From Acidimicrobiales bacterium (GTDB lineage Bacteria > Actinomycetota > Acidimicrobiia > Acidimicrobiales > Aldehydirespiratoraceae): a DNA stretch of 64,000 nucleotides. The notes under the pieces are model-generated. The model was not told the origin of the DNA, did not search any database, and worked only from the letters and a program-made list of their open reading frames with translations. The stretch is from NCBI GenBank assembly GCA_041394245.1, contig JAWKIR010000002.1, positions 1,412,305 to 1,476,304 on the forward strand, written 5' to 3'. This document shows, piece after piece, positions 32,283 through 46,442 of the stretch. The number at the start of each line of letters is the position of its first letter. The first letter of the stretch is position 1. A program made the position numbers and the translations under genes.

Positions 32283-34394
32283 GTGCGTGTGGCAGCACTC
32301 GACGACGCGGATCGGCTCGCGGCGCTCCAGGACAGCGGCCTCCTCGGTGGTGACCCGCTTCCCGGTCTCGACGGCGTGCTTCGCATCGCTCGCCATGTCA
32401 TGGGCACATCGACGGTCATGTTCACCGCAGTCGACGTCGACCGCCAGGTGTTCGTCGACCACATCGGTCTGAACGAGGCCTGGGCGAGCGCCGGCCAGAC
32501 CCCGCTGTCGCACTCGTACTGTCGCCTGGTCGTCACGGGAGACGCGCCGTTGGTCGTACGCGACGCTCCGAACGACGAACGGGTGCGGAACAACCCGGCG
32601 ACCGCCGAGGCGAGCATCGGCGCCTACCTCGGCGTGCCCGTGCGATCCGTCGACGGCCACATCCTCGGTTCGCTGTGTGCGCTCGACGGCTCCCCCCGCG
32701 CCTGGACGAACGACCAGATCCGCGTCCTGACGGATCTCGCCGGTGCCATCGAGGTCGAACTCACTCTGCGCGACACCACCAGGGAGCTGGCCGACCGACT
32801 GACATCGGAGTCGCTCGAACGGGGGTTCGAGGAGTCGATGACCGCCCTCGCGGCGGCGACGTCGCGATCATGGACCGTCGACGCGGTGGTGCGCTCCATC
32901 GTCGAGAACGCGAAGGCGGCCACCGGCGCCGCGGTGGTCACCGTTGCCCTCCACGAGGACGACACCCTTCGCATCTTCGATGCCCGGGAGCCTGGCACGA
33001 GCGGCGAGGACGGATGGCACACGACCGACATCGACACCCCGTCGCCCATGACCGACGCGGCACGCAACGGGCGGACACTGATCCTCCCGGACCCACCGGC
33101 GATGGCCGAGTGGCCCGAGTTCGCCGACACGATGGCGGACCTCGACCTGCAGTCCTACATCGCGATGCCGGTGGGCACGACCGACAGCGGAGCGAGGGCG
33201 GTCATCGGCGTCGGCTGGACGAGCCCGATGAAGAGCCGCGACATGCCGCGCCCGGTCGCCCGTCTCGCCACACTGGCTCGACACGGGCTCGATCGGGCCC
33301 ACAGCCACGAGACGGCGCGGGTCCATGCCGAACTCCTCGAGACCCTCGTCCTACCCGAGACACTCCCGTCGGTTCCTGATCTCGACATCGCGGGGGTCTA
33401 TCTTCCGCCCTCGGCCGGCCAGCGGGTCGGCGGCGACCTCTACGACGCCGTGACCCGCGACGACGGGCGCATCGCGTTGATCGTCGCCGATGCGGCCGGC
33501 CACGACGTCGTCGGCTCGCTCGTCACCAGCCGGGTGCGCAACGCCTTCACGATGTTGTCCCTCGACCTTCGCAGCCCCGCCCACACGATGCGCGCCATCA
33601 ATCGCTACCTGATGCGCTCGACCATCACGACACACATCACCGCCGTCGTGGCGCTCGTCGATCTCGAAACCGGCACCGTGACCATCGCGAACGCCGGCCA
33701 CCTCCAACCCCGGCTGCGCCGCGCCGACGGGCGGGTCGATCGCGTCGGTCCGGCCGGAGAACCACTGCTCGGCCTCCAGACATTCGACTATCACGAAGCC
33801 GAGGTGCCCTTCGACGAGGGCGACAGACTACTCCTGTTCACCGACGGCCTGATCGAGTGGCGGGACCGACCGCTGACGGCGAGCGAGCAGGCGCTCGACG
33901 ACATGCTCGGCGCCCTCGGCACGGAAGGATCAGCCGCCGCCGTGGATCGCCTCTCGTCGGCGCTGCCCTCACGGGACGACGATCTGGCGCTGATGCTGCT
34001 CACGCGGCGCGCTCCGGCACGCGACCACGGGCTCGAGTTGGAGTGGCCGGCCGCCGAGATCTCGCTCGGCAACGCCCGGTCTCGATTGTCGCGATGGCTG
34101 GACGGTCATCCGCGGCTCGACGACATCGTGTTGATCGCGACCGAGCTCCTCACCAACGCCCGCACGGCCAGCGACCGGCCCGACCGACCGGTGACGCTCC
34201 GCGCCTCCCGAGACGACCACTCGGTGTGCCTACGCGTCACGAACCACGGTCCGGCACTCCCGACGGGGACACCGCCGATGCCCGACGCAGCGAACATCCG
34301 CGGACGAGGCCTCGCAATCGTCGCCGCGGTCGCAGACCTGCGCATCGAGAACGTCGACGGCCAGGTGACGGTCGAGGCCCGTCTGTCCGACTAG
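32283..34394 (+). CDS. multidomain partner-switching regulator: GAF-GAF-PP2C (SpoIIE) phosphatase-RsbW-like HATPase domain
   Basis: Two GAF-like sensor regions. PP2C motifs GGDLYD, ADAAGHD, LFTDGL. C-terminal TELLTNA N-box and GRGLAIVAAVAD G2-like box. Confidence 0.8.
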   Translation: MRVAALDDADRLAALQDSGLLGGDPLPGLDGVLRIARHVMGTSTVMFTAVDVDRQVFVDHIGLNEAWASAGQTPLSHSYCRLVVTGDAPLVVRDAPNDERVRNNPATAEASIGAYLGVPVRSVDGHILGSLCALDGSPRAWTNDQIRVLTDLAGAIEVELTLRDTTRELADRLTSESLERGFEESMTALAAATSRSWTVDAVVRSIVENAKAATGAAVVTVALHEDDTLRIFDAREPGTSGEDGWHTTDIDTPSPMTDAARNGRTLILPDPPAMAEWPEFADTMADLDLQSYIAMPVGTTDSGARAVIGVGWTSPMKSRDMPRPVARLATLARHGLDRAHSHETARVHAELLETLVLPETLPSVPDLDIAGVYLPPSAGQRVGGDLYDAVTRDDGRIALIVADAAGHDVVGSLVTSRVRNAFTMLSLDLRSPAHTMRAINRYLMRSTITTHITAVVALVDLETGTVTIANAGHLQPRLRRADGRVDRVGPAGEPLLGLQTFDYHEAEVPFDEGDRLLLFTDGLIEWRDRPLTASEQALDDMLGALGTEGSAAAVDRLSSALPSRDDDLALMLLTRRAPARDHGLELEWPAAEISLGNARSRLSRWLDGHPRLDDIVLIATELLTNARTASDRPDRPVTLRASRDDHSVCLRVTNHGPALPTGTPPMPDAANIRGRGLAIVAAVADLRIENVDGQVTVEARLSD

Positions 34395-35119
34395 GAGCGG
34401 TACTCGGGATTCTGGTCGGCCGCATTCGTGACGTGTGACCACTCCCCCACCGTGTTTCCCTCGGTCGGGAATCCTCCGCGGTCTCGCAGCATGCGGGCCG
34501 TGTGCATGAGGTTCCACGCCATGACCGTGCAGTTCTTGTTGGTGAACTCGCTGTCGTACCCGGCCGGTGTCGTCTGTCCGTCGATCTCGTCGCCGTAGCT
34601 GGGTCCGGGACCGATAGATCCGAGCCAGCCACAGTCCGCACCAGGAGGAATGACGTAGCCGATGTGTTGCAGGGCGTAGAGCACATCGCGGGCGACGGCC
34701 TTCACACCGTCCTCGTTGCCGGTCACGACACAGCCGGCCGTCTTGCCGTAGTACACGTACTGGCCCCGATCGTTGGTCTCGGCACTGTTCGCATACATCC
34801 GCTCGATCGCGAGCGTCGCCACACTCGACTTCGCTCCCAGCCAGATCGGCGAGCCGACCACCAGAATGTCGGCCGCCTCGATGCGGTCCTGGATCATCGG
34901 CCAGTCGTCGACCGGCGCGCTGTGTTCGGTCATGTCCTTGTCCATGCCGAAGGGGATCCGGTGGTCGAGTGCGTGCACCACCTCGACCGCGACCCCCTCG
35001 GCTTCCATGATCCCGGCCGCCCGCTGCACCAGTCGCATGGTGTGCGACTCGCTCGGGTCGCGTTTCAGCGAGCAGTTGAGGAAGAGGGCGGAGAGGTCGG
35101 AGAATCCCACGTCGGTCAT
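34391..35119 (-). CDS. flavodoxin-like NAD(P)H-dependent FMN reductase family protein
   Basis: Start MTDVGFSD (cat at 35117-19). ..LFLNCSLK.., ..ILVVGSPIWLG.. The stop overlaps the convergent upstream gene by 4 nt. Confidence 0.7.
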   Translation of the reverse strand: MTDVGFSDLSALFLNCSLKRDPSESHTMRLVQRAAGIMEAEGVAVEVVHALDHRIPFGMDKDMTEHSAPVDDWPMIQDRIEAADILVVGSPIWLGAKSSVATLAIERMYANSAETNDRGQYVYYGKTAGCVVTGNEDGVKAVARDVLYALQHIGYVIPPGADCGWLGSIGPGPSYGDEIDGQTTPAGYDSEFTNKNCTVMAWNLMHTARMLRDRGGFPTEGNTVGEWSHVTNAADQNPEYRS

Positions 35120-35128
35120 GGCCGGGCG

Positions 35129-35154
35129 ATACCCACCGACCGGCACCGGCAAAC
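35129..35154 (-). promoter_or_regulatory. SigF/SigB-type promoter candidate (GGTTT-N16-GGGTAT)
   Basis: Minus strand reads CAGGTTT GCCGGTGCCGGTCGGT GGGTAT CGCCCGGCC ATG. The -10 ends 9 nt before the ATG at 35119. Confidence 0.55.
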
Positions 35155-35160
35155 CTGCGG

Positions 35161-35202
35161 TTGCGTCAGGCCGCGATTGCGTCAGGCCACTATCGCGTCA
35201 GG
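35161..35202. repeat. three direct GCGTCAGG repeats with a 16-bp period
   Basis: ttGCGTCAGGcc (35161-72), ttGCGTCAGGcc (35177-88) and tcGCGTCAGG (35193-202). They lie just upstream of the -35 of the promoter candidate and overlap the antiporter stop codon. Confidence 0.6.
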
Positions 35203-36931
35203 AAGGCGCGCGGATGACGATCGCTCGTTCGTTCTCCCCGAGCGCCACCGATCGGCCTGCGAAGTGGACCCGGCCCGCGGCATCGATCACACACACGAGC
35301 TCGGAGTCGTCCTCACCCTCGTCGAGCGGGCCGTCGACGACGACGAGCGAAGCGCCCTGGGCGTAGAGCTCGCTGAGGCGTTCGGCATTGAGATGCTCGG
35401 GCAGGACGAGCCGCGGGTTCACAGTCTGCGTGGTCCCGGGTTCGGAGAGCGTTTCGAGCGCAGCGAGTCCGAAGACGTTGGCCGACCCGATCTCCTCGGC
35501 CAGGCGTTTCGCGCTGAACGCGTCGAGGTGGTCGGTTCCGGAGAGGACCACTCCCGTGCCGACCCCGATCGCAGCGATCGCTTCGTCGAATGCGTGACCG
35601 TCGAGCCTGCCCTGGAACGCGAGCAGACCGAGAGCAGCCGCCCGGTCGGCCTCCTCCTCGTCGAGTCCGAGCAACAGCGTCACCACACCGGCTTCGGTGA
35701 GTCGCTCGGCCAGCTCGATCGCGAACGGACTGCCGCCCACGATCGCCACACCGGAAGGTTCGGGCTTGGCGACCCTCAGTCGACGAGCGACCCCGCGGGC
35801 GAGCACGCTCGTCACGACGACGGTGGTCACGACCACCGTGAACACCGTGGGCACGAGGGGTCCGGGATCGATGCCCTCGTGGTCGAGTTCGATCGCGAAG
35901 AGCGACGCGACGGCCGCGGCGACCACACCGCGGGGCGCCATCACCATCAGGAAGCCCCGATCGGCTCGCCCCAATTGTGTGCCGATGGTAGAAGCCACGA
36001 CGGCCAGGGGGCGGGCGAGAACCATCAGGACAGCGGCGAGCAGGACCGAGGGAATCAGCCCATCGACCACCACGTCGAGGTCGACTCGCGCGCCGAGCAC
36101 GATGAACAGCACACCCAACACCGTGGTGCCGAGGTTCTCGTTGAATTCGGTGATGCGCGCCGCCGGAATGAACTGCTGGTTGGCGAAGGCCATTCCCAGC
36201 AACGTGACGGCCAACAAGCCTGCCTCCGGACGCAGCAGGTTCGCCGTAGCGAACGCGCCGAGCACCGCGGCCAGGGTGAGGGGCACGTGGAGACGGTCGG
36301 CGACGAGGCGACTCCGGAGCGCACCGACCAGCACCAGGGCGACGATCGCACCGACCACCGCACCGGCCCCGAAGGTGCTGAGGAGACGCAGGAGGATCCG
36401 GCCGACCGATCGCTCCTCGACGATCGCGTCGAGCACGCCGATCGCCAGCGAGGCACCGATGGGGTCGATCAGGATGCCTTCCCACTTCAGGACCGATCCG
36501 GCAGGCTCGCGGGGACGAACGACGCGCAGCAGCGGAGCGATCACGGTGGGGCCCGAGACCGTGAGGATGGCGGCCATGAGCACCGCGATGTCGGTGTCGA
36601 CATCGAAGAGCAGCAGCGTGAAGACGGTTCCCACCGCCCACGAGACGGCAACCCCGATCGTGACCAGGCGGAGTACCGGTTGACGCGCCGTCCCGAGGGA
36701 CTTCCAGTGCAACCCCGTCCCACCCTCGAAGAGGAGAATCGCGACTCCGAACGACACTCCGGTGAACAGCAGCTCACCGAAGATCTCGTCCGGGTCCATC
36801 ACTGTTCCCAGGCCCATGCCGGCGACCAGGAGGAACAGCACCGACGGAACCCGGAGTCGGGCACCGAGCATCTGGCATCCGATCGCTGCGCCGGCGATGA
36901 CGGCAACGGCGGTCTGTGGATCGGTGATCAT
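35198..36931 (-). CDS. cation:proton antiporter (CPA1, Na+/H+ exchanger family) with a C-terminal RCK/TrkA-N-like domain
   Basis: About 10-12 TM segments, then ..GVAIVGGSPFAIELAERL.. Rossmann-like cytosolic domain. Confidence 0.8.
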   Translation of the reverse strand: MITDPQTAVAVIAGAAIGCQMLGARLRVPSVLFLLVAGMGLGTVMDPDEIFGELLFTGVSFGVAILLFEGGTGLHWKSLGTARQPVLRLVTIGVAVSWAVGTVFTLLLFDVDTDIAVLMAAILTVSGPTVIAPLLRVVRPREPAGSVLKWEGILIDPIGASLAIGVLDAIVEERSVGRILLRLLSTFGAGAVVGAIVALVLVGALRSRLVADRLHVPLTLAAVLGAFATANLLRPEAGLLAVTLLGMAFANQQFIPAARITEFNENLGTTVLGVLFIVLGARVDLDVVVDGLIPSVLLAAVLMVLARPLAVVASTIGTQLGRADRGFLMVMAPRGVVAAAVASLFAIELDHEGIDPGPLVPTVFTVVVTTVVVTSVLARGVARRLRVAKPEPSGVAIVGGSPFAIELAERLTEAGVVTLLLGLDEEEADRAAALGLLAFQGRLDGHAFDEAIAAIGVGTGVVLSGTDHLDAFSAKRLAEEIGSANVFGLAALETLSEPGTTQTVNPRLVLPEHLNAERLSELYAQGASLVVVDGPLDEGEDDSELVCVIDAAGRVHFAGRSVALGENERAIVIRAPS

Positions 36932-37047
36932 CGAACGCCACCCCTCATCGCCTCGACGGCGAGCCGTCGACGCGCCTGCCGCGAGCGCGGCGCACCCGAT
37001 GAACGGATAGATTTCGCCCGAGCGTCGCGGAGCCCGGAGGACACATC

Positions 37048-37350
37048 GTGGAGATTCAGCCGATCGTGCAGGACGACGGCACCCGTGTCGCGGTGCACGG
37101 CGAAGCCGACGCCGACAATTGCCACGAACTCGGGGCCGCGCTCCTCGACGAGTCGTTGATCGGCCCCGTCCGTCTCGACCTGGCCGGGCTGTCGTTCCTC
37201 GACTCCTCGGCGGTCAGCGAGCTGCTCGGCATCCAGCAGGAGTTGGCGACACGCGGCATCGAACTGTCGATCGTCGAGACCTCGCCGGCCGTGCACCGCG
37301 TCCTCGAGATCACGGGCCTTCTCGACGTTTTCGGCATCGACGCGAGCTGA
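37048..37350 (+). CDS. STAS-domain anti-sigma-factor antagonist (RsbV/SpoIIAA/RsfA-RsfB-like)
   Basis: 100 aa, GTG start. ..LDLAGLSFLDSSAVSELL.. with the conserved Ser position. ..VLEITGL...F. Confidence 0.8.
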   Translation: MEIQPIVQDDGTRVAVHGEADADNCHELGAALLDESLIGPVRLDLAGLSFLDSSAVSELLGIQQELATRGIELSIVETSPAVHRVLEITGLLDVFGIDAS

Positions 37351-37357
37351 ACGCAAC

Positions 37358-38140
37358 TCAGCCCCGCCCGAGGCCCGTTGTGCCCGGCCCGATCTGCTCA
37401 CGGAGCGTCTCGAGCGAGCGTCGGATCAGGCGGCTCACGTGCATCTGGCTCACGCCGACCCGTTCGGCGATCTCCGATTGCGTGAGCGATCCTGCGAAGC
37501 GCAGCTCGAGAATCTCGCGTTCACGCGGCGGAAGGGTCTCGAGCAGACCACTGATCGCCATCTTGGTGTCGAACCGATCCACGTCGACATCGGTCGTCGT
37601 GAGAGCGGGTGGTGTCGCGCGGGGCGCCTCGTCGGCCGATGATGCCGCACTGTCGATGCTCGACGCCCGATAGGACCGCTGCACGTCGAGGGCCTCGAGT
37701 ACCGCGTCGGTGTCGAGTCCGGTCTCGGCGGCGATCTGATCCACGGTCGGTGACGCGCCGAGCCTGAGCGCCAGTTCGTCGACGACGGCGCGCACATGGA
37801 GCGATCGCTCCTGCAGCGACCGCGGAACGTGCACGGACCACGTGGCGTCGCGAAAGTAGCGCTTGAGCTCCCCGTCGATGGTCCGACCGGCGAAGGTGGA
37901 GAACTGCACGCCGATCGACGGGTCGAACCGGTCGACTGCCTTGACGAGTGCGAGCATCGCCACCTGACGGAGATCAGCGCTTTCGGCGCCACGGTCTCGG
38001 TAGCGAGCGGCGAAGTACTCGGCCAGCGGCACGAACGACTCGACGATCGCGTTGCGATTCGTCTCGCTCGGATCGGCGGCGAACGCCTCGAAGAGCCGGT
38101 CGCGATCCGAGGCGTTCGCCCCGGGTCGCTCAGACGGCAT
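37358..38140 (-). CDS. RNA polymerase sigma factor, SigB/SigF/SigG subfamily
   Basis: Start MPSERPG (cat at 38138-40). DLRQVAMLALVKAVDRFD, WSVHVPRSLQE, LTQSEIAERVGVSQMHVSRLIRRSL. Closely parallels M. tuberculosis SigF as I remember it. Confidence 0.9.
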   Translation of the reverse strand: MPSERPGANASDRDRLFEAFAADPSETNRNAIVESFVPLAEYFAARYRDRGAESADLRQVAMLALVKAVDRFDPSIGVQFSTFAGRTIDGELKRYFRDATWSVHVPRSLQERSLHVRAVVDELALRLGASPTVDQIAAETGLDTDAVLEALDVQRSYRASSIDSAASSADEAPRATPPALTTTDVDVDRFDTKMAISGLLETLPPREREILELRFAGSLTQSEIAERVGVSQMHVSRLIRRSLETLREQIGPGTTGLGRG

Positions 38141-38522
38141 CGACAGCGGCCTTGGCCTTCGACAGACGAATACGACGCCGTCCGCTCTCGGACTCGTCCA
38201 GCTGGAAGTCATCGACCGTCGCACCGAGGATCGCTTCGACGAGATCGTCGACACCGACCGGCGCGAGCGCCTCACCGGTGCGCACGCCGACGATCTCGAC
38301 CACGCCGTCGGACGCGTCGAGCGTCAACGTGACCTCGCCGCCGACCTCGTCGTCGGCCAGAAGCCAGGTGAGCGCCTCGGTGACGGCGAGACGGAGATCA
38401 TCGAGCTCCTCGACGTCGAACCCGGCCGCTGCGCCGACCGCGGCGGCATTCAACCGACCGACGACGAGATACCCCGGGCGAGCGGGAAACCCGATCCTGA
38501 GTTGATCGATCTCATTGGGCAC
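38130..38522 (-). CDS. anti-sigma factor, UsfX/RsbW-like with a degenerate HATPase fold
   Basis: GTG start behind GGAAGAGGA. Overlaps the sigma gene by 11 nt. DLRLAVTEALTWLL corresponds to the UsfX DLRLAVDEVCTRLI region. No DxGxG or G2 box seen. Confidence 0.65.
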   Translation of the reverse strand: MPNEIDQLRIGFPARPGYLVVGRLNAAAVGAAAGFDVEELDDLRLAVTEALTWLLADDEVGGEVTLTLDASDGVVEIVGVRTGEALAPVGVDDLVEAILGATVDDFQLDESESGRRRIRLSKAKAAVDAV

Positions 38523-38536
38523 AGCGTGTCCTCTTC

Positions 38537-38563
38537 CTGTGACGCGTCTTGCTGTGACGCGTC
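38537..38563. promoter_or_regulatory. two copies of CTGTGACGCGTC, each containing the 8-bp palindrome GACGCGTC
   Basis: 38537-48 and 38552-63, 15-bp period. They sit 15-41 nt upstream of the anti-sigma GTG. Confidence 0.4.
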
Positions 38564-38606
38564 GCCGGCACGAGGCGAAGCCTACGCGCCGGCGCGGTCC
38601 ATGGGC

Positions 38607-38750
38607 TCACGTGAAGACACTCACACCGCCGGGACCCACGAGCAGGCCGACGATGATCAGCACGGCACCGTAGGTGAACTGCTTGCGCACGACGGCGACG
38701 ATTCCGGAAACGACGAGGATGACGGCGAGGAGCCAGAGGAGAAACGACAT
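38607..38750 (-). CDS. small membrane protein (47 aa, GPGG motif)
   Basis: MSFLLWLLAVILVVSGIVAVVRKQFTYGAVLIIVGLLVGPGGVSVFT gives two TM helices. ATG behind AGGAATATCCC. Confidence 0.55.
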   Translation of the reverse strand: MSFLLWLLAVILVVSGIVAVVRKQFTYGAVLIIVGLLVGPGGVSVFT

Positions 38751-38798
38751 GGGATATTCCTGCTTTCTTGTGGTTGGTTCTTTGTGATGCTGGAAGGG

Positions 38799-38824
38799 GT
38801 ACCCGGAGCGCGGAGGTCCGAAAC
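38799..38824 (-). promoter_or_regulatory. SigF/SigB-type promoter candidate (GGGTTT-N16-GGGTAC)
   Basis: Minus strand reads CGGGTTT CGGACCTCCGCGCTCC GGGTAC, 48 nt upstream of the small-membrane-protein ATG. Confidence 0.55.
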
Positions 38825-38829
38825 CCGGT

Positions 38830-39273
38830 TCAATCGGCCCGTGCTTCGGCCATGCCGGCCCGGTAGGCGGTGGCGAGCGCCTGCTTCTCGATGTCGTCGA
38901 GCGCCTTTCCCGCCAGCTGGAACACCTCTTGTTCCTCCTCCCGGAGGTGATGCAGGAGGCGGTGCTCGAGCTCACGGGCGGTCACCAGGAACTGGGGTGC
39001 CGACATGTCGTAGCCGTCGAGCTGCTCGATGAAGTCCTCGAGTTCCTTGTGCTCGGCAACACTGTGACGCGCCATCTCCTGCGTCAGATCGTCACCCATC
39101 AGCGGCACGTAGAACTGACGTTCCTCGTGCACCGCGTGAGCGGACAACTCGTCCTTGAGTTCCTCGAACGAGGCCTCCCGGGCCTCGCTCGCGCCGGTTG
39201 TGTCGAGGAGCTCCCCGATCAGCCGACGCTGCCGTTCGTGGTCCTCGCGAAGCGCTTCGAAGATCGTCATCAT
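38830..39273 (-). CDS. hemerythrin HHE cation-binding domain protein
   Basis: Start MMTIFEAL behind AAGGA. ..REDHERQR.., ..HAVHEERQFY.., ..VAEHKELE.., ..LEHRLLHHLREEE.. His/Glu ligand pattern. Confidence 0.8.
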   Translation of the reverse strand: MMTIFEALREDHERQRRLIGELLDTTGASEAREASFEELKDELSAHAVHEERQFYVPLMGDDLTQEMARHSVAEHKELEDFIEQLDGYDMSAPQFLVTARELEHRLLHHLREEEQEVFQLAGKALDDIEKQALATAYRAGMAEARAD

Positions 39274-39339
39274 CTCGTGTCCTTTCAGGATTCCGACGTC
39301 TCGCCGTGGGCCGACGTCGTGGGCGGTGAGGGAGCGGAC

Positions 39340-39364
39340 GTACCCGACCGCGTCGGGTTCAAAC
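39340..39364 (-). promoter_or_regulatory. SigF/SigB-type promoter candidate (GGGTTT-N15-GGGTAC)
   Basis: Minus strand reads GGGGTTT GAACCCGACGCGGTC GGGTAC, 66 nt upstream of the hemerythrin ATG. Confidence 0.55.
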
Positions 39365-39397
39365 CCCCGTGTGGCCGATTGCGGGAGCATGCGCATC

Positions 39398-39423
39398 GTT
39401 TAGCTGCACGCGACGGCGGGTAT
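39398..39423 (+). promoter_or_regulatory. SigF/SigB-type promoter candidate (GTTT-N16-GGGTAT)
   Basis: ATCGTTT AGCTGCACGCGACGGC GGGTAT, 32 nt upstream of the ATG at 39456 (RBS AGGAGA). Confidence 0.6.
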
Positions 39424-39455
39424 GCCCGACGCGAACCCACACACAGGAGAACCCC

Positions 39456-39863
39456 ATGGGCGCCATCCGCAAGGCCTTGTCGATCACGACCCTCGGAGTC
39501 GTGAACTGGCGAAGCAAATCCGAACTGCTCGAGATCGAGCGTGCTGCGCTGGACGAGACGAGCGAGAAGCTCGCCGAGCAGCAGGCGAAGGCAGAACGCC
39601 TCGGCCGGCGGGCGAGGAAGGCCGAGAAGAGGGCCCGCAAGGCCGAGCTGAACGAGCTGAAGACCGCAAGGTCCGCCCGCCGCCGACGCCGCTTCCTGCG
39701 CCGCAAGCAGAAGGTGGCCCTCGCCGCGAAGGGCGCAACCGCGGATGCGAGCGCCGCCGCTTCCGCTCAGTCCCGACGCGCCCGTCGCAAGCTCCGCCGA
39801 GCGGAGAAGAAGGCTCGGTCGCAGGTCGACGCCGTCACCGACGCAGTCCACGACCTCGCCTGA
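39456..39863 (+). CDS. hypothetical Lys/Arg-rich coiled-coil-like protein (135 aa)
   Basis: ATG behind AGGAGA. ..AERLGRRARKAEKRARKAELNELKTARSARRRRRFLRRKQK... No family recognised. Confidence 0.55.
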   Translation: MGAIRKALSITTLGVVNWRSKSELLEIERAALDETSEKLAEQQAKAERLGRRARKAEKRARKAELNELKTARSARRRRRFLRRKQKVALAAKGATADASAAASAQSRRARRKLRRAEKKARSQVDAVTDAVHDLA

Positions 39864-39904
39864 GGTCTCTCACCAGGTCCTGTCACCGCCTGGCGAGCCG
39901 GCCG

Positions 39905-41335
39905 CTACGGTCCGATCATTCCGCGTTCGTCGGGGGCGAGCAGCCCCGTCGGCACGTCGGGATCCTCGAACGGCAGCGCGGGGCGGGAGTACTCGACCGT
40001 CCCGAGTGCCATGGTGAACAAGTCGACGGCGTCGCGCAGCACCGCTTCGTCGATGCCGTGCCGATCGGCGACGAGGTCGACCAGCTCCTCGCCCGATGCG
40101 CGGGCGTCACGTTGGGCGACGGCAGCGGCGTCGTAGCCGATCAGCGGCGCCAAGGCCGTCACGATCGCCTGTGATCCCTCTGCGAGCGCACGACACCGCT
40201 CGAGGTGGGGCACGACCTTCGCCACCACCTTCTCTGCGAGCATGTCGGCTGCTGCGGTCAGCAGATCCAGCGAGTCGAGCAGGTCGTGCACGATGAGCGG
40301 CAGGTAGGTGTTGAGTTCGAGCGCGCCGCGCGATCCGGCGTGGGTGATCCCAGCGTCGTTGCCGATGACTCGGGCGACGATCTGGTTCACCACCTCGGGA
40401 ATCACCGGGTTGACCTTGCCCGGCATGATCGACGACCCGGGTTGCAACTCCGGCAGCTCGATCTCGCCGAGACCGGCGGTCGGACCGCTCGCCATCAGCC
40501 GGAGATCGTTGGCGATCTTGTCGAGGGAACACGCGACGGTCTTCGCCCGTCCGGAGAGATCGACCAGGTCGTCGTGCGCTCCCTGGAGGGCGAAGTGGTT
40601 CGGACAGGGGGTCAGGTCGAGGCCGGTGGACACGGCGAGTTCGTGGATCGCCCGTTCGGCGTAGCCGGGCGGCGCATTGAGGCCGTTGCCGACCGCGGTC
40701 CCACCGAGCGGGAGCCGCCCCAGGTTCGCCATGAGCGAGTCGATCCGGGAGCGACCGTCGACCACCTGTTGGCGGTAGCCACCGAACTCCTGGCCGAGCG
40801 TGATCGGCACCGCGTCCTGCATGTGGGTGCGACCGACCTTCACGACGTGCCGGCTGTTGACCTCGTGCAACCCGAGCTCCCGCTCGAGCCGGGCGAGCGC
40901 GGACACGAGACGGTTCGCCGCCTCGAGCACTGCTATCCGGCTGCCGCTCGGCATCACGTCGTTGCTCGACTGCCCCAGATTCACATGATCGATCGGGTGA
41001 ACCGGGGTTCCGTCGAGGAGCTGTTCCGCCCGTGCCGCGACCACCTCGTTGACGTTCATGTGGGTCGATGTCGCCGAACCGGTCTGAAACACGTCGACGA
41101 CGAACTGGTCGTCCCATGCGCCGGTGCGGATCTCCTCACAGGCCGTGGCGATCGCCTCGGCGATCGGGCTCGGCAACCGTTCGGGCACCAGGTCGCACAG
41201 CACGCCGGCCGCCGCCGCCTTGATCCTCGCGACGGCGTGGACGACGGGGAGCGGGAACACGACACCGGACGCGTCGAAGTTCTCCACCGCCAGGCGGGTG
41301 TGCTCGCCGTAGAGGGGGACGCTGGGAGTCGTCAT
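39905..41335 (-). CDS. aspA: aspartate ammonia-lyase (class II fumarase/aspartase family)
   Basis: Start MTTPSVPLYGEH (cat at 41333-35). Signature GSSIMPGKVNPVIPEVVNQ is aspartase-type rather than the fumarase PTQCEA type. ATGA overlap with the upstream gene. Confidence 0.75.
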   Translation of the reverse strand: MTTPSVPLYGEHTRLAVENFDASGVVFPLPVVHAVARIKAAAAGVLCDLVPERLPSPIAEAIATACEEIRTGAWDDQFVVDVFQTGSATSTHMNVNEVVAARAEQLLDGTPVHPIDHVNLGQSSNDVMPSGSRIAVLEAANRLVSALARLERELGLHEVNSRHVVKVGRTHMQDAVPITLGQEFGGYRQQVVDGRSRIDSLMANLGRLPLGGTAVGNGLNAPPGYAERAIHELAVSTGLDLTPCPNHFALQGAHDDLVDLSGRAKTVACSLDKIANDLRLMASGPTAGLGEIELPELQPGSSIMPGKVNPVIPEVVNQIVARVIGNDAGITHAGSRGALELNTYLPLIVHDLLDSLDLLTAAADMLAEKVVAKVVPHLERCRALAEGSQAIVTALAPLIGYDAAAVAQRDARASGEELVDLVADRHGIDEAVLRDAVDLFTMALGTVEYSRPALPFEDPDVPTGLLAPDERGMIGP

Positions 41336-42747
41336 CCTCCGTCCTCGCCGAACGTCCGGTCTCTGGATGTTGCGGGGAACCGACCTGACCAGGGCGTCTC
41401 TGTCGTCCAGTCGGGCTGCACATCGGCATGCGCTCCATCGATGATCGCCCGACCGTCGACGAGGTCGACCAGCGGCGCGACCACGGGATCCGGACCCGAC
41501 CGCACACCGGCCGGGTCGGCCAACGCGTCCGGGAAGAAGGCGAGGAGTCCGTCGACGACACCCTGGATCTGGCCGGCGAGCCCGCACCGGGCACCTTCGA
41601 CCACCCTGGCCGACGAGACCTGGAGGGATTCGGCGACCGCGGGCAGGCGTTCGGCGCCGCTCCTGGCCGCGTCCAGGTGACCGGCGATCGCCAGACCCTC
41701 GGTCTTGCAGGGCAGGCACTGTCCGCAGCTCTCGACCGACAGGAACGAGGCGGCTGCCCGCGCGATCGCAACCGGATGGGTCCCCTTCGCGAAGACCCGG
41801 ATCGCCGCCGCGCCGATCGGCAGCGACGTCTCGGCGTCGGGTTGTGGGACCATCGGTCTGTCGAGGTGACCGGCCGGGATCAGCGGATACGACACGCCGT
41901 TGAGCACGGCCGCGGCATCATCGGCGCCGTCGCCGACCACGTCGCGCAACGAGGTGCCGACCGGGAACTCCTCGACTCCGGCGACAGGAACGTCGCCGCT
42001 GACGGTGGCGAGAAAGGTCGCCACCGGCCATTCGGGACGATCCGCACCGTGATACCGGATCACGTGAGCGACACGAGCAAGCGTTTCGACATTGTGGACG
42101 AGCGCGGGCGGCGGCAGGGTCCCCTCGTCGAACGGCGCAGCCATCGCAGTCGACGCGGGCGATCCCGTCCCGTCCATGTCGAGCGCGCCATGTCGCCATG
42201 GTGGTCCGATACGAGGGAAGGGCTGATGGCCGACGACCACCTCGAGCAGCGCAGACTCCTCGCCGAACAGGTACCGGTCGGGCCCGTAGACGAACACCAC
42301 CTCGGCAATGCGCTCGGTCGCCAACGCCTGCACCTCCGCTACCGCCGACTTCAGTCGGGCGACCTCGGTCGCGAAGCTCTCCTTCGTCGCGATGACGATG
42401 GTGTCGGCCCCGACGGCGCGGGCGGCGATGACCGCTCCCTCGACGACCGAATAGGGGTCCCGGCGTATCAGCATTCGATCCTTGAACGAACCGGGCTCGC
42501 CCTCGGCCGCGTTCACGACCAGCGACGGCGCCGCCTCCACGGATCGGAAGCGGTTCGTCGTCCGCCACTTCGTCGCGACCGGGAACCACGCTCCCCCGCG
42601 GCCACGAAGACCGGCCTCGTCGATGACGTCGATCGTCGCTTCGGCGCCGAGGAGGGACGCTGCGAGGATCGCGTCGCCGGCTCGGGCTCGCAGGTGATGC
42701 GAGTACGACGCGACAGGGGCGGGCGGCAGCACGGAGTTCGGGTCCAT
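41332..42747 (-). CDS. NuoF-like (complex I 51-kDa subunit family) FMN/NADH/4Fe-4S protein, stand-alone
   Basis: GLRGRGGAWFPVATKW, NAAEGEPGSFKDR, YLFGEESALLE, ESCGQCLPCK. Start MDPNSV at 42747 (alternative 42777). Confidence 0.7.
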   Translation of the reverse strand: MDPNSVLPPAPVASYSHHLRARAGDAILAASLLGAEATIDVIDEAGLRGRGGAWFPVATKWRTTNRFRSVEAAPSLVVNAAEGEPGSFKDRMLIRRDPYSVVEGAVIAARAVGADTIVIATKESFATEVARLKSAVAEVQALATERIAEVVFVYGPDRYLFGEESALLEVVVGHQPFPRIGPPWRHGALDMDGTGSPASTAMAAPFDEGTLPPPALVHNVETLARVAHVIRYHGADRPEWPVATFLATVSGDVPVAGVEEFPVGTSLRDVVGDGADDAAAVLNGVSYPLIPAGHLDRPMVPQPDAETSLPIGAAAIRVFAKGTHPVAIARAAASFLSVESCGQCLPCKTEGLAIAGHLDAARSGAERLPAVAESLQVSSARVVEGARCGLAGQIQGVVDGLLAFFPDALADPAGVRSGPDPVVAPLVDLVDGRAIIDGAHADVQPDWTTETPWSGRFPATSRDRTFGEDGG

Positions 42748-42756
42748 GGCGCCGCC

Positions 42757-42782
42757 GTACCCCTGCGCCACGCCCATCAAAC
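42757..42782 (-). promoter_or_regulatory. SigF/SigB-type promoter candidate (GTTT-N16-GGGTAC)
   Basis: Minus strand reads CATGTTT GATGGGCGTGGCGCAG GGGTAC GGCGGCGCC ATG. The -10 ends 9 nt before the ATG at 42747. Confidence 0.5.
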
Positions 42783-42790
42783 ATGGCGGT

Positions 42791-42816
42791 GTTTGGCACG
42801 ACCGGTCGGCGGGTAG
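42791..42816 (+). promoter_or_regulatory. SigF/SigB-type promoter candidate (GTTT-N16-GGGTAG)
   Basis: GGTGTTT GGCACGACCGGTCGGC GGGTAG, 34 nt upstream of the ATG at 42851. Its -35 is back to back with the divergent -35. Confidence 0.5.
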
Positions 42817-42850
42817 GGCGACCATCGACCATCGACACTCGGAGCTGAAG

Positions 42851-43303
42851 ATGACACCGCACCCGACCGACTCGAGCCCACTCGACCCCACCTTCGCGAG
42901 AGGATCGGACACTCTCGTCACGGTGCTCGCCAGCGCCGCGGCCGCGGGGTACGCGACCGCCATGACGGTGTCTCCCGGTGCCGTGATGGTTTGCGGCAAC
43001 TGTGCCGAGCACGCTGCTGCGCGTGCCGTTTCCGTCGACCGCTACCGGCGTCTGGAAGGCGCCAGCGACGCAGCTGATCTCATGCTCGTCGCCTTGGTTC
43101 GCTGTCCTCACTGCGAGATCGGCGGCACGCTCACCTTCGGCTACGGGCCGAACTCGGGAGTCGACGACGACGATTTCCTGTCGGAACTGGATCTGGGCGA
43201 CGCAACGCAACGGGCTGACGGGTTTGTCGCCGACCACGAGGCCGCCGACCACGAGAGGGCCGGTCTCCGGGACCCGGACCACGCCCAAGGAGGAACGACG
43301 TGA
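42851..43303 (+). CDS. hypothetical Zn-ribbon protein (CxxC...CxxC)
   Basis: ATG behind GGAG. VCGNCAEH ... RCPHCEIG, 37 residues apart. Acidic C-terminus. GTGA overlap with the following USP gene. Confidence 0.55.
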   Translation: MTPHPTDSSPLDPTFARGSDTLVTVLASAAAAGYATAMTVSPGAVMVCGNCAEHAAARAVSVDRYRRLEGASDAADLMLVALVRCPHCEIGGTLTFGYGPNSGVDDDDFLSELDLGDATQRADGFVADHEAADHERAGLRDPDHAQGGTT

Positions 43304-43809
43304 AGATTCTGCTGGCAGTCGACGACAGTGCGACGAGCTACGAAGCAGCGCTCGTCGTCTCACAATGGTTCGGCGACGACGCGTCGATCGTGGCACTGCA
43401 CGTCGGCACCGTCACGCCGACACTCTCGTCGACGGAGCATCTGGCCGTCGGCGGGTCCGGCTACCCCGTGTTCGCGCTTCCCGCGCTGCGAGAACGCATG
43501 ACGGAGATCACGCGCGCGGCCCGTGAGGTCGCAGCTCGCGCCGCCAACCTCACGGACGGTTCGGTCCGCACGGAGCAGGGGGATCCGGCCGACGTCATCG
43601 TCGCGGTCGCGGCCGAGATAGATGCCGACCTCATCGTGGTCGGCACCGGAGATCGATCGTGGCTCTCCCGCCTGCTCAACCCGTCGGTGAGCTCGACCGT
43701 GGCCGAGAAGGCGCCGTGCTCGGTCCTCGTCGTCCGGTCCGGCGCACTGGGTGAATCGACACTGGGTGAATCGACACTGGGGGAATCGACAGTGGGGGAA
43801 CCGACATGA
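43300..43809 (+). CDS. universal stress protein (UspA family) with a C-terminal LGEST repeat
   Basis: MKILLAVDDS.., ..ADLIVVGT.., ..VAEKAPCSVLVV... Ends in ALGESTLGESTLGESTVGEPT. Confidence 0.8.
   Translation: MKILLAVDDSATSYEAALVVSQWFGDDASIVALHVGTVTPTLSSTEHLAVGGSGYPVFALPALRERMTEITRAAREVAARAANLTDGSVRTEQGDPADVIVAVAAEIDADLIVVGTGDRSWLSRLLNPSVSSTVAEKAPCSVLVVRSGALGESTLGESTLGESTVGEPT
43747..43806 (+). repeat. 15-bp tandem repeat x4 at the 3' end of the USP gene
   Basis: CTGGGTGAATCGACA, CTGGGTGAATCGACA, CTGGGGGAATCGACA, GTGGGGGAACCGACA. The last unit supplies the A of the next gene's ATG. Confidence 0.9.
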
Positions 43810-44843
43810 CAGCGGTGCATCCGCCCCGCGTGACCACGGCTGAACTCCAACACCTCGCCCGCGGGCAGGCACCGTTCGTGTCGATCTATGTCGACACCCG
43901 CACCGCGCACCGAGACACGCTCGTGCAGCGCGTCGCCGCCGTCGCCGACGGCCTCTGCGTCCTCGGCGCGCCGGACGACATCGTGCGTCGGACGACCACG
44001 GCGTTCCTGGCGCCGCCCGCCGATCGCGCCGGCCTCGCCGTTGTCGCGTCCAGCGACGGTCGGACCGTCGTCGCGTCCTCGCCCGAACCGTTCGAGCGGG
44101 ACGTCGGTTTGTACTCCCGGGTCCCGTACCTCGGGCCGATGATCGAGATCGCCCAACAATCGATCACACATGCCGTCGTGCGCGACACCGAGCACGGCGT
44201 GCCCGACCTCACGGTGTTCGGCGCGGACGGCAGCGTCCAGACGACCACCGCGGCGGCACCACAGCGCACCGACGACGTGCTCGCGGAAGTCGTTCGCCAC
44301 GATCCGGCCGTCGTTTTCGTCGTCGGAGACGCCCCGACGTCGATGGTCACCCACCTCGAGCGAATGGTCGCCGAGAACCGCCTCCGCCCCGACTGCAGGA
44401 TCGAGCCCCTCGACGAGGGAACCGACGACGACGTCGCCGACGCCGTCGTGCGCCACGCCGCCGGCGTGGTGGCCTCCCACAAGGTCGAGTTGCTGCGCGA
44501 GTTCCGCTTCGAACGCTCGCACGGGCGGGCCGTCGACGGCATCGACGCGGTTGTCGCGGCGGTCAACGCCGGACTGGTCGCCACCTTGATCCTCAACGCC
44601 GACCCCGACGACCATCGTCGGGCGATCGTCGGCTCCGAGGGAGACATCGTCCCCCTGGACGGTCCGGTCGCCTCTCCGTCACCCGCCGTCGACGAGGTCC
44701 CGCTCGTCGACGCGCTCATCTGGGCCACTCTGGCCCGCGGGGGCGCCGGCGCGGTCATCCCGACGACCGGCGACGGCGGACCGGCCGACGACATCGGAGC
44801 GCTGCTGATCCCGCGACCGGCGAACGGTCTCATCGACCGGTGA
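43806..44843 (+). CDS. bacterial eRF1-like (baeRF / Rv2629 / Balon-like) protein; the CDS is well supported but the function is tentative
   Basis: ATGA overlap with the USP gene. 345 aa. The N-terminus ..LQHLARGQAPFVSIYVDTRTAH.. resembles the ..GPWASVYLDTS.. start of actinobacterial proteins annotated Vms1/Ankzf1- or Rv2629-like (from memory). USP neighbourhood. Confidence 0.45.
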   Translation: MTAVHPPRVTTAELQHLARGQAPFVSIYVDTRTAHRDTLVQRVAAVADGLCVLGAPDDIVRRTTTAFLAPPADRAGLAVVASSDGRTVVASSPEPFERDVGLYSRVPYLGPMIEIAQQSITHAVVRDTEHGVPDLTVFGADGSVQTTTAAAPQRTDDVLAEVVRHDPAVVFVVGDAPTSMVTHLERMVAENRLRPDCRIEPLDEGTDDDVADAVVRHAAGVVASHKVELLREFRFERSHGRAVDGIDAVVAAVNAGLVATLILNADPDDHRRAIVGSEGDIVPLDGPVASPSPAVDEVPLVDALIWATLARGGAGAVIPTTGDGGPADDIGALLIPRPANGLIDR

Positions 44844-44870
44844 CGCCGGCACCACGATCGAGGGCCTGAC

Positions 44871-46442
44871 TCAGGGATGCGCCGTGCGGAACCGGACCTC
44901 TCGCTCGAGACTGGTCGACAGCAGACCGCTGCGCTCCTCCGCCGCGAAGACCTCCAGCTCGGCGCTCTCGCCGTCGGCGACGTGCAGCTCGATGTCGAGC
45001 CGCGTGTCGGAGATGGTCACTCCGGTGCGTTCCACGACCCGTCGATAGCTGCGATCGAGCCCGATGCCCACGCGCAGCAGCCCGGCCAGGACCCGCACCG
45101 TGTGCTGGTCCTGCTCTGGGAGGGCGGAGAACTCGAGATGACGGGGCCGCGGTTCGCTCTTGCGGTGATAGCGGGCGACGAGCGCGATCAGCTCGAGCTC
45201 CTGCTCGGTGAACCCCAACAATTGCTCGGAGTTGCGGATCAGGTAGTAGGAGTGCTTGTGGTGGGCGGCGTGTGCGATGAAACGCCCGACGTTGTGGAGG
45301 ACGCCGGCCGCCTCGAGGATCTCCCGCTCGGGCTCACCCAAACCGTGGATCGGGGCGGTCTCGTCGAACAGCCCGAGTGCAAGGTCGGTCGCGTGCTTCG
45401 CATGGGCGACGTCTTCGTCGAAGCGGTCCGCAACGGCGAGCACGCTGCGGCGCCGGAGGTCGGGAAGGTGATGCAGCGCGCCCTTCGCCCCGGCCCGTCG
45501 GTCCAGCCGATCGAGAACGACCCCCTCGCGTAGCGCGTTGGGTGACACCACCATCTCGTCGATGCCGAAGGCTCGGAACAGCTGCTGCAGCAGGATCGCG
45601 CCGGCGACGATCACATCGGCGCGTGCCTCGTCGAGCCCGGCGAGATCGGCGCGATCCTCCGGCGTCGGTCGTTCGACGAGGGCGTTCACCACCGAACTGA
45701 GTCCCTCACGGGTGAGCACCAGATTGTCGATCGTCCGCACTGTCCGGCCCTCCATTCGGGCTGCCATCGTGGCGACGGTCTCGATGGTCCCCGAGCAGCC
45801 GATCGCCACCTCGTGGCCCAGTGCCCCGACCTCGTTCGCGACCGTCGAGAGGAACGACTTCAGGTACGACTTCAGCTGCCTGACCGACCCCTCGGCGACG
45901 ACACCTCCGGGCATGAAGCCGTCGGTCAGCCGAATGTGACCGAGCTTCATCGAGCGGACCAGCAGGGGTTCGGTCTCGCAGCCGACCACGATCTCCGTCG
46001 ACCCACCCCCGATGTCGATGACCAGATGGTTGCCCGATCCGACTGCGACTGCACTGAGCGCGCCCAGATGGATGAGTCGCGCCTCCTCCACACCGGCGAT
46101 CACCTCGAGGCGCACACCGGTCCGGCGGCGCACCTCGCGCAGAAACGCACGCGGATCGGCCGACTCGCGGACCGCGCTCGTCGCTACCGCGACCAGTTCG
46201 GCGTCGTAGCCCGCCGCGATCTGGGCGAACCGATCGACGGCGGCGATGGCACGTTCCACCGCATCCGGATCGAGCGACTTCATGTCGCGCTCGCCCGACC
46301 CGAGGCGGACCTTCTCGCGATCGCGGGCGATCACGTCGAGCGGTCCGAGCGGCGTCGCCCGGGCGATGACGAGGTGGACGGAGTTCGTGCCGACGTCGAT
46401 CGCCGCGAGCGGTCGTTCGGCATCGGGACTCGTGTCTGTCAC
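44871..46442 (-). CDS. Ppx/GppA family exopolyphosphatase / guanosine pentaphosphate phosphohydrolase with a C-terminal HD-like region
   Basis: AAIDVGTNSVHLVI, IDIGGGSTE, GCSGT ASKHA-fold motifs. ..HHKHSYYLI.. in the C-domain. Confidence 0.85.
   Translation of the reverse strand: MTDTSPDAERPLAAIDVGTNSVHLVIARATPLGPLDVIARDREKVRLGSGERDMKSLDPDAVERAIAAVDRFAQIAAGYDAELVAVATSAVRESADPRAFLREVRRRTGVRLEVIAGVEEARLIHLGALSAVAVGSGNHLVIDIGGGSTEIVVGCETEPLLVRSMKLGHIRLTDGFMPGGVVAEGSVRQLKSYLKSFLSTVANEVGALGHEVAIGCSGTIETVATMAARMEGRTVRTIDNLVLTREGLSSVVNALVERPTPEDRADLAGLDEARADVIVAGAILLQQLFRAFGIDEMVVSPNALREGVVLDRLDRRAGAKGALHHLPDLRRRSVLAVADRFDEDVAHAKHATDLALGLFDETAPIHGLGEPEREILEAAGVLHNVGRFIAHAAHHKHSYYLIRNSEQLLGFTEQELELIALVARYHRKSEPRPRHLEFSALPEQDQHTVRVLAGLLRVGIGLDRSYRRVVERTGVTISDTRLDIELHVADGESAELEVFAAEERSGLLSTSLEREVRFRTAHP

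Follow-up and report, generated by a model that had tools for sequence, protein, structure and literature searches.

We describe a cluster of six putative stress-type promoters in a stretch of Acidimicrobiales DNA of 64,000 nucleotides (nt) (GenBank assembly GCA_041394245.1, contig JAWKIR010000002.1), which in its full length is referred to here as the window. The six sites share the bipartite motif GTTT-N15/16-GGGTA, are packed into 7.7 kb, and are very probably promoters read by RNA polymerase carrying the group 3 sigma factor encoded among them (37358-38140, minus strand; Table 1). An earlier examination of the letters alone, hereafter the sequence-only reading, had taken the sites for promoters of the SigF/SigB type served by the neighboring sigma gene. 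We arrive at the same view because the sigma factor passes the model of the SigB/SigF/SigG subfamily, its promoter-contacting residues are conserved, the motif is enriched near homologous sigma genes, it matches the published SigF consensus, and it recurs at orthologues of the target genes. The start sites, the dependence on this sigma factor, the inducing signal, and the logic of the partner switch described below are inferred.

Occurrence of the motif in the window

Scanned exhaustively on both strands, the window contains exactly six matches to GTTT-N15/16-GGGTA, at positions and with sequences identical to those that the sequence-only reading had listed by eye, and no further exact site. 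Five of them have an N16 spacer, and one has an N15 spacer. All are confined to four intergenic gaps (35120-35197, 38751-38829, 39274-39455, and 42748-42850), and each is directed toward a start codon. The scan and the gene map thereby agree with the earlier statement that every site is intergenic and correctly oriented toward its named start codon. The strand is informative for sites 1 and 2, which lie in gaps between codirectional genes, and it is correct there as well.

Relaxing the motif adds little. With the spacer widened to N13-19, no extra site appears in the 64-kb window, and a tolerance of one mismatch brings in just 9781-9805(-) and 38777-38801(+); the latter is a near match because of the palindrome GGGTACCC of site 2. 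The pentamer GGGTA by itself shows no notable enrichment (39 observed versus 29.6 expected in the window), and the signal therefore resides in the bipartite arrangement.

A chance cluster of six matches in slightly AT-richer intergenic DNA is rejected by these scans and appears exceedingly improbable. The four site-bearing gaps are indeed somewhat lower in G+C than the window (66.1% versus 68.6%), but only 0.05 matches are expected per window, none of 100 dinucleotide shuffles reached six (the maximum was one), and simulated DNA of intergenic composition yields 0.015 matches per 11 kb, or 0.004 over the 442 nt that these gaps span. In addition, the same enrichment recurs around 160 independent loci, as detailed below. 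The chance figure of 0.3 given earlier was thus somewhat high; the enrichment itself stands and is stronger than had been stated. The region shows no compositional anomaly suggesting a recently acquired island. Sigma-70-type promoters and intrinsic terminators were not detected by a scan of 34000-45000, and Rfam returned no RNA family in the window.

The sigma factor and its predicted promoter contacts

The sigma factor scores 246.3 bits against TIGR02980, the SigB/SigF/SigG subfamily model (cut-off, 234.35). Its best PDB match is the open promoter complex of Staphylococcus aureus sigma-B (8x6g; E value, 2e-41), with an ungapped alignment across region 2/3. In that structure, the -35 element is contacted by R241 (-35G), S235 (-34T), M237 (-33T), Q236 (-32T), and R244 (backbone) (PMC11156646). 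At the -10 element, R110, R100, and R97 contact -15G, -14G, and -13G, recognized in duplex form; the flipped -11A enters a pocket made by F79 and F86, and R74 contacts the backbone (PMC11156646). The equivalents in the window sigma factor are R237, S231, M233, Q232, and R240 for the -35 element, and R107, R97, and R94 (the GGG contacts), I76, F83, and R71 for the -10 element. Contact residues are therefore identical at 10 of 11 positions, the sole change, F79 to I76, being hydrophobic. The seven residues that contact bases are unchanged in 158 or more of the 160 homologues.

By analogy with this complex, region 4 of the sigma factor would read the -35 GTTT, and the end of region 2 together with the start of region 3 would read the -10 GGG as double-stranded DNA. 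In the register of the structure, GGGTA spans -15 to -11, which puts the end of the hexamer at -10 and +1 ten bases past the A (PMC11156646). The A of GGGTA would accordingly be the flipped -11 base, with transcription starting about 10 nt past it.

The motif around homologous sigma genes

We surveyed 160 homologous sigma genes in other Actinomycetota, comprising 80 genomic loci (1.29 Mb) and an independent set of 80 metagenome loci (0.5 Mb). The organism of the window is poorly sampled, and the closest sigma matches are found in Acidimicrobiales metagenome-assembled genomes (MAGs; 63%, 56%, and 53% identity) and in a marine metagenome contig (57%). Relatives this distant (63% and 57% sigma identity at best) do not allow orthologous intergenic regions to be footprinted at a fine scale. 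The GPGG-motif protein of the locus is also present on a 2.5-kb Logan contig that is 99.64% identical to 37001-39478, with nine mismatches, none of them within the sites; this contig is too similar to be usable for footprinting. No contig on record encodes the exact hemerythrin or lyase protein of the window.

Within the 80 genomic loci, GTTT-N14-17-GGGTA occurs 137 times versus 3.4 expected, an approximately 40-fold enrichment. Spacer lengths are sharply distributed (37 sites with N15, 75 with N16, and 24 with N17, and 0 to 4 for every other length from 10 to 22), and the metagenome loci contribute a further 76 sites. Counted between the two hexamers, N15 to N17 corresponds to 13 to 15 nt. 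Site density per 10 kb is 6.9 in the first kb upstream of the sigma gene, 1.3 to 1.8 within 2 kb, and 0.3 to 0.7 further away, compared with a random expectation of approximately 0.03. This profile is the signature of an autoregulated sigma factor with a dispersed regulon and some local clustering, and the peak in the first kb upstream points to autoregulation across the family. Genes that recur downstream of the sites encode the sigma factor itself, UsfX/RsbW-like anti-sigma factors, STAS proteins, Dps, CsbD, hemerythrin, and CBS-domain proteins, which are classic stress-regulon members. In the relatives, only 29% of the sites fall within a crude coding mask covering 78% of the bases. A gene caller based on G+C at third codon positions (GC3), which misframes several genes, served for rough coding fractions only.

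The distance between hexamer and start codon was determined for 143 exact sites from the window and 80 related loci. A distance of 9 nt is found 21 times and one of 10 nt 17 times, with 1 to 3 sites at each of the neighboring distances. Together, 38 of the 143 sites (26.6%) lie 9 to 10 nt from a start codon, versus 1.9% of random control positions. Back-to-back divergent pairs are also frequent, with 19 among the 143 sites (17 of them outside the window) and 1 to 76 bp between the two -35 elements, and there is no convergent pair.

We also weighed whether the bipartite motif could be a transcription factor operator or a short dispersed repeat, and not a promoter. Short inverted repeats in the spacers of sites 3 and 6 would fit such an origin, as would the tandem direct repeats that adjoin site 1 and those in the anti-sigma leader. 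However, the two half-sites differ and are nonpalindromic, the six spacers have no sequence in common, and no repeat family links the sites. Moreover, the orientation relative to the downstream gene is fixed, as is the leaderless start distance of 9 to 10 nt, and the half-sites agree with the bases that sigma-B contacts in the solved open complex. An operator or repeat is thus a very unlikely account of the motif.

Predicted transcription starts

The hexamers of sites 1 and 5 stop exactly 9 nt short of the ATG (35119 and 42747, respectively). Since the register of the sigma-B structure and this 9-nt gap place +1 on the A of the ATG, leaderless mRNAs are predicted at both, with +1 at 35119 for site 1 and at the A of ATG 42747 for site 5. 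The FMN reductase and the NuoF-like/lyase operon would thus both be made as leaderless mRNAs. The other four sites (2, 3, 4, and 6) are followed by leaders of approximately 23 to 57 nt with visible Shine-Dalgarno sequences of the AGGA/GGAG type. For site 2, +1 is predicted near 38788-38790 with a leader of approximately 39 nt, and for site 3 near 39330 with a leader of approximately 57 nt, in which an AAAGGA ribosome-binding site precedes the hemerythrin ATG at 39273. The predicted +1 of site 4 is near 39433, with an AGGAGA ribosome-binding site downstream, and that of site 6 is near 42826.

Sites 3 and 4 form a divergent pair with 33 bp between their -35 elements (39365-39397), and sites 5 and 6 form a second pair with only 8 bp between them (42783-42790). 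At the closest divergent spacings, two holoenzymes would need overlapping upstream DNA. Two perfect inverted repeats are seen in these pairs: ACCCGAC-CGC-GTCGGGT (39342-39358), which overlaps the -10 element of site 3, and CGACCGGTCG (42800-42809) within the spacer of site 6. They could be operators or chance occurrences in G+C-rich DNA.

The start of the hemerythrin gene bears on sites 3 and 4. A public Logan gene call (L081 83-649, corresponding to window 38830-39396, minus strand) begins the protein at ATG 39396 and makes it 188 amino acids (aa) long, which would place both sites within coding sequence. This call is probably an overextension, because the hemerythrin orthologues at loci L003, L005, and L082 align from residue 1 to 3 of the 147-aa model and because AAAGGA precedes ATG 39273.

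Conservation of the predicted targets

Orthologues of the window's targets were scored for a site with at most one mismatch no more than 200 nt upstream of the start, a criterion satisfied by 2.6% of random control segments. A site is present at three of three hemerythrin orthologues (L082, L003, and L005), two of four orthologues of the GPGG protein, two of four of the Zn-ribbon protein, one of two of the universal stress protein (Usp), and the single orthologue of the baeRF-like protein. In L003, both the Usp and the baeRF-like orthologues have an exact site. The hemerythrin sites read GGTT-N16-GGGTA in L082 and GTTT-N16-GGGCA in L003, and both variants are found among the SigF promoters of Mycobacterium smegmatis (PMC4694148).

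Several results weigh against the assignment of the six sites to the adjacent sigma factor, or narrow it. The promoters of the two predicted leaderless transcripts are not conserved, with a site at none of six FMN reductase orthologues and not at the single NuoF-like orthologue. Judging by the presence or absence of the site at orthologues in relatives, some targets look like old members of the regulon, and the two leaderless ones look like lineage-specific recruits. The sigma factor scores below the cut-offs for both mycobacterial SigF (NF005514, 232.7 versus 372) and Bacillus SigB (TIGR02941, 182 versus 315). Since these specific cut-offs are missed, it is filed at subfamily level only, as a member of the SigB/F/G family with a SigF-like organization and not as a demonstrated orthologue of SigF or SigB. 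The assignment of its anti-sigma factor draws on below-threshold matches (HATPase_c_2, 23.8 bits, cut-off 27.4; RsbW, E value 6e-8) and on position. Finally, a test of whether a site faces a coding-like open reading frame (ORF) within 220 nt was uninformative, with 92% of sites and 84% of random positions doing so.

A further point on that side concerns which sigma factor reads the sites. They could be promoters of the SigB/SigF type and yet serve chiefly one or several SigB/F-like paralogues encoded elsewhere in the genome, with the adjacent sigma factor sharing the task with others or playing a minor part. The nine SigB homologues of Streptomyces coelicolor cross-recognize promoters of this same consensus (PMC8346170), and some related genomes have more than one SigB/F-like sigma factor, with at least one MAG yielding two separate sigma loci (L028 and L057), so that the adjacent sigma factor need not be the sole or main reader. 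The contact residues are invariant across the family, and paralogues would therefore read the same motif. On the other hand, no second sigma factor of the SigB/F/G family is encoded in the 64-kb window, and the family-wide peak of the motif within 1 kb upstream of sigma genes, as well as the flanking of this sigma gene by all six sites, argues for a cognate, autoregulated pairing. We therefore regard a paralogue as main reader as quite unlikely and retain recognition by the adjacent sigma factor as the preferred reading.

Partner-switch genes and proposed regulation

The candidate anti-sigma gene overlaps the start of the sigma gene by 11 nt, and its position is kept in relatives. Only the N-terminal half of HATPase_c_2 is matched by its product, and a Trp replaces the Asn of the ATP-binding N-box (LAVTEALTWLL). 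The protein is 32% identical over 63 aa to a UsfX-like ORF upstream of sigF in Mycobacterium gastri (L072), which likewise lacks the N-box Asn. From these sequence features, the 130-aa protein probably binds the sigma factor without kinase activity. The sole RsbW-type kinase domain nearby is found in the GAF-PP2C fusion protein (32283-34394), which is likely the input module of a partner switch. Orthologues of this fusion adjoin the sigma gene in L001 and lie near it in L003. A STAS antagonist and a PP2C phosphatase are thus both encoded at the locus. The STAS gene (37048-37350) has no SigF-type site upstream, and the layout of STAS and sigma genes is the same in L082.

In the mechanism that we propose, site 2 would drive the sigma factor's own operon (GPGG membrane protein, anti-sigma factor, and sigma factor), which would amount to positive autoregulation. 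Activity would presumably be gated after translation by partner switching, with the UsfX-like anti-sigma factor holding the sigma factor and the STAS protein, controlled by the neighboring GAF-PP2C-kinase protein, freeing it under stress. No terminator-like site was found between the hemerythrin gene and site 2, and therefore read-through from the hemerythrin gene into the sigma operon is possible. Judged from its gene content, the local regulon (hemerythrin, Usp, FMN reductase, NuoF-like, Zn-ribbon, and K/R-rich proteins) resembles a general-stress/redox response of the kind that SigF controls in mycobacteria.

Tandem direct repeats were observed at two places in the cluster. The leader of the anti-sigma gene (38532-38561) holds two 15-nt copies of GACGCGTCACAG[C/G]AAGA on the minus strand, the second of which abuts the ribosome-binding site of that gene. 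Repeats upstream of anti-sigma genes are also seen in L082 (two of 18 nt at the same place), in L007 and L062 (longer arrays), and in L139, with a different sequence in every genome. They may be an element for a regulator, an element acting at the RNA level, or slippage duplications. At 35157-35204, in the 78-nt gap after the antiporter gene, two 16-nt tandem copies of GCG[G/A]TTGCGTCAGGCC and a degenerate third immediately precede the -35 element of site 1 and may be an activator or repressor site or a UP-like element. The core shared by the two tandem repeats (GCGTCASRG) shows no enrichment.

Gene content of the locus

The sites and genes of the locus are listed in Table 1. Two of the predicted transcription units downstream of sites are tightly packed: the NuoF-like and lyase genes overlap by 4 nt in a two-gene operon (39905-42747, minus strand), and 4-nt overlaps also join the Zn-ribbon, Usp, and baeRF-like genes in a three-gene operon (42851-44843, plus strand). 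All NCBIfam equivalog scores for the NuoF-like and lyase proteins are below cut-off. A stand-alone NuoF-like gene translationally coupled to a lyase gene is an unusual pair to find under a predicted leaderless stress promoter, and in L004 a NuoF-like homologue also adjoins STAS, anti-sigma, and sigma genes. The Ppx/GppA phosphatase and Na+/H+ exchanger genes, which flank the cluster, lack a SigF-type site and may be stress genes with a related function but a different mode of control.

TABLE 1 Predicted promoter sites and genes of the cluster, in window coordinates
Feature	Position	Strand	Match to GTTT-N15/16-GGGTA	Description
Site 1	35129..35154	-	35130-35154	GTTT-N16-GGGTAT; faces FMN reductase gene, ATG 35119
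Site 2	38799..38824	-	38800-38824	GTTT-N16-GGGTAC; upstream of operon GPGG small membrane protein/anti-sigma/sigma
Site 3	39340..39364	-	39341-39364	GTTT-N15-GGGTAC; faces hemerythrin gene
Site 4	39398..39423	+	39398-39422	GTTT-N16-GGGTAT; faces gene for K/R-rich 135-aa protein
Site 5	42757..42782	-	42758-42782	GTTT-N16-GGGTAC; faces NuoF-like gene, ATG 42747
Site 6	42791..42816	+	42791-42815	GTTT-N16-GGGTAG; faces operon Zn-ribbon protein/Usp/baeRF-like protein
GAF-PP2C (SpoIIE)-RsbW-like kinase (HATPase_c_2) fusion	32283-34394	+		Pfam SpoIIE, GAF, HATPase_c_2
NADPH-dependent FMN reductase family protein	34391-35119	-		Pfam FMN_red, E value 8.6e-15; target of site 1
Na+/H+ exchanger family protein, long C-terminal extension	35198-36931	-		Flanks cluster
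STAS anti-sigma-factor antagonist	37048-37350	+		Pfam STAS; TIGR00377 above cut-off; convergent with sigma gene
Group 3 sigma factor, SigB/SigF/SigG subfamily, 260 aa	37358-38140	-		TIGR02980; Pfam r2, r3, r4
Probable anti-sigma factor, UsfX/RsbW-like, 130 aa	38130-38522	-		Weak matches and position
GPGG-motif small membrane protein, 47 aa	38607-38750	-		NF040511, 79.5 bits (cut-off, 33); first gene after site 2
Hemerythrin-domain protein, 147 aa	38830-39273	-		Pfam Hemerythrin; target of site 3
K/R-rich protein, 135 aa	39456-39863	+		No Pfam or NCBIfam match; target of site 4
Aspartase/class II fumarase-family lyase	39905-41335	-		Pfam Lyase_1 and FumaraseC_C; operon target of site 5
NuoF-like flavoprotein (FMN and 4Fe-4S domains)	41332-42747	-		Pfam Complex1_51K and NADH_4Fe-4S; operon target of site 5
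Zn-ribbon-like protein, 4 Cys	42851-43303	+		First gene of site 6 operon
Usp	43300-43809	+		Pfam Usp, E value 1.2e-22; operon target of site 6
baeRF_family3-like protein, weak	43806-44843	+		22.9 bits, below cut-off; operon target of site 6
Ppx/GppA polyphosphate/(p)ppGpp phosphatase	44871-46442	-		Flanks cluster

Significance of the locus

The locus reproduces the picture known for mycobacterial SigF in another actinobacterial class and is a familiar regulatory system that involves no new mechanism. It would go further if the 7.7 kb, which come from an Acidimicrobiales lineage that has barely been sampled, were an autoregulated and self-contained stress/redox island with an undescribed second regulatory layer, in which paired holoenzymes share or compete for short DNA and the genome-specific tandem repeats bind a regulator that tunes sigma/anti-sigma stoichiometry; we consider this extended picture unlikely.

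Ultimately, the locus offers a clean regulon seed for Acidimicrobiia, a class abundant in soils and oceans, and it shows that the SigF/SigB promoter code and the underlying protein-DNA contacts are conserved across deep actinobacterial lineages. Six start sites are predicted to single- or near-single-nucleotide precision, two of them leaderless, and hemerythrin, Usp, GPGG-motif, and Zn-ribbon proteins are nominated as recurrent stress-regulon members. In practical terms, the sites flag automatic gene calls that would swallow promoters, such as the 188-aa hemerythrin call in a public record.

Comparison with known systems

A literature search returned no paper combining Acidimicrobiia with SigF regulation, and the closest comparison is with the mycobacterial SigF system (M. 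smegmatis MSMEG_1804 and M. tuberculosis SigF), with which the window shares an identical consensus, the distances to start codons, and a local cluster of targets. The M. smegmatis SigF consensus is GTTT-N14-19-GGGTA, with many sites 8 to 11 nt from the start codon, meaning leaderless mRNAs; a run of SigF-dependent genes (MSMEG_1766-1802) lies beside rsbW-sigF, and the rsbW-sigF operon has a site of its own (PMC4694148). Genome-wide mapping of start sites places GGGTA at the -10 element of 56 hypoxia-induced promoters, and roughly one in four M. smegmatis transcripts lacks a leader (PMC6448022). Among the regulators, the probable UsfX-like anti-sigma factor, the STAS antagonist, and the PP2C-kinase fusion recall UsfX/RsbW, RsfA/RsfB, and Rv1364c-type regulators. 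The differences lie in the host, which is Acidimicrobiia-like and hence of another class, in the operon, which starts with a GPGG small membrane protein, and in the multidomain regulator, which has GAF in place of PAS and no fused STAS domain. In addition, the targets in the window differ from those of mycobacterial SigF (a hemerythrin, a NuoF-like/lyase operon, and a Zn-ribbon/Usp/baeRF-like operon), and six promoters, including two back-to-back pairs, are packed into 7.7 kb.

The sigma-B system of Bacillus subtilis and S. aureus (RsbV-RsbW-SigB) has the consensus GTTTWW-N~14-GGGWAW, which equals GTTT-N16-GGGTA, and likewise combines an autoregulated operon with control by a STAS/anti-sigma partner switch, both of which are predicted here. 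Of the classic members of its stress regulon, CsbD and Dps are motif-bearing in relatives. In contrast to this system, the sixth -10 position in the window is mostly C or G and not A or T, the anti-sigma factor is apparently without a kinase N-box, and the STAS gene lies outside the sigma operon. Leaderless transcripts, as predicted in the window, are not a Firmicute feature.

S. coelicolor SigB and its eight homologues share with the window a high-G+C actinobacterial host. Their promoters have a near-invariant GGG, an A at position 5 of the -10 element, and spacers of 12 to 14 nt between hexamers, with mapped starts 8 to 10 nt past the hexamer (PMC8346170). The -10 elements of the window resemble them in carrying GGG and the A at position 5. 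Whereas the -35 element is often degenerate in Streptomyces (GNNT), all six window sites have a perfect GTTT, and in place of a set of nine homologues a single such sigma factor is visible in the window, which gives no grounds for linking it to development or osmotic stress. Overall, the promoter code and its geometry are those of mycobacterial SigF, and the organization of the locus is SigF-like.

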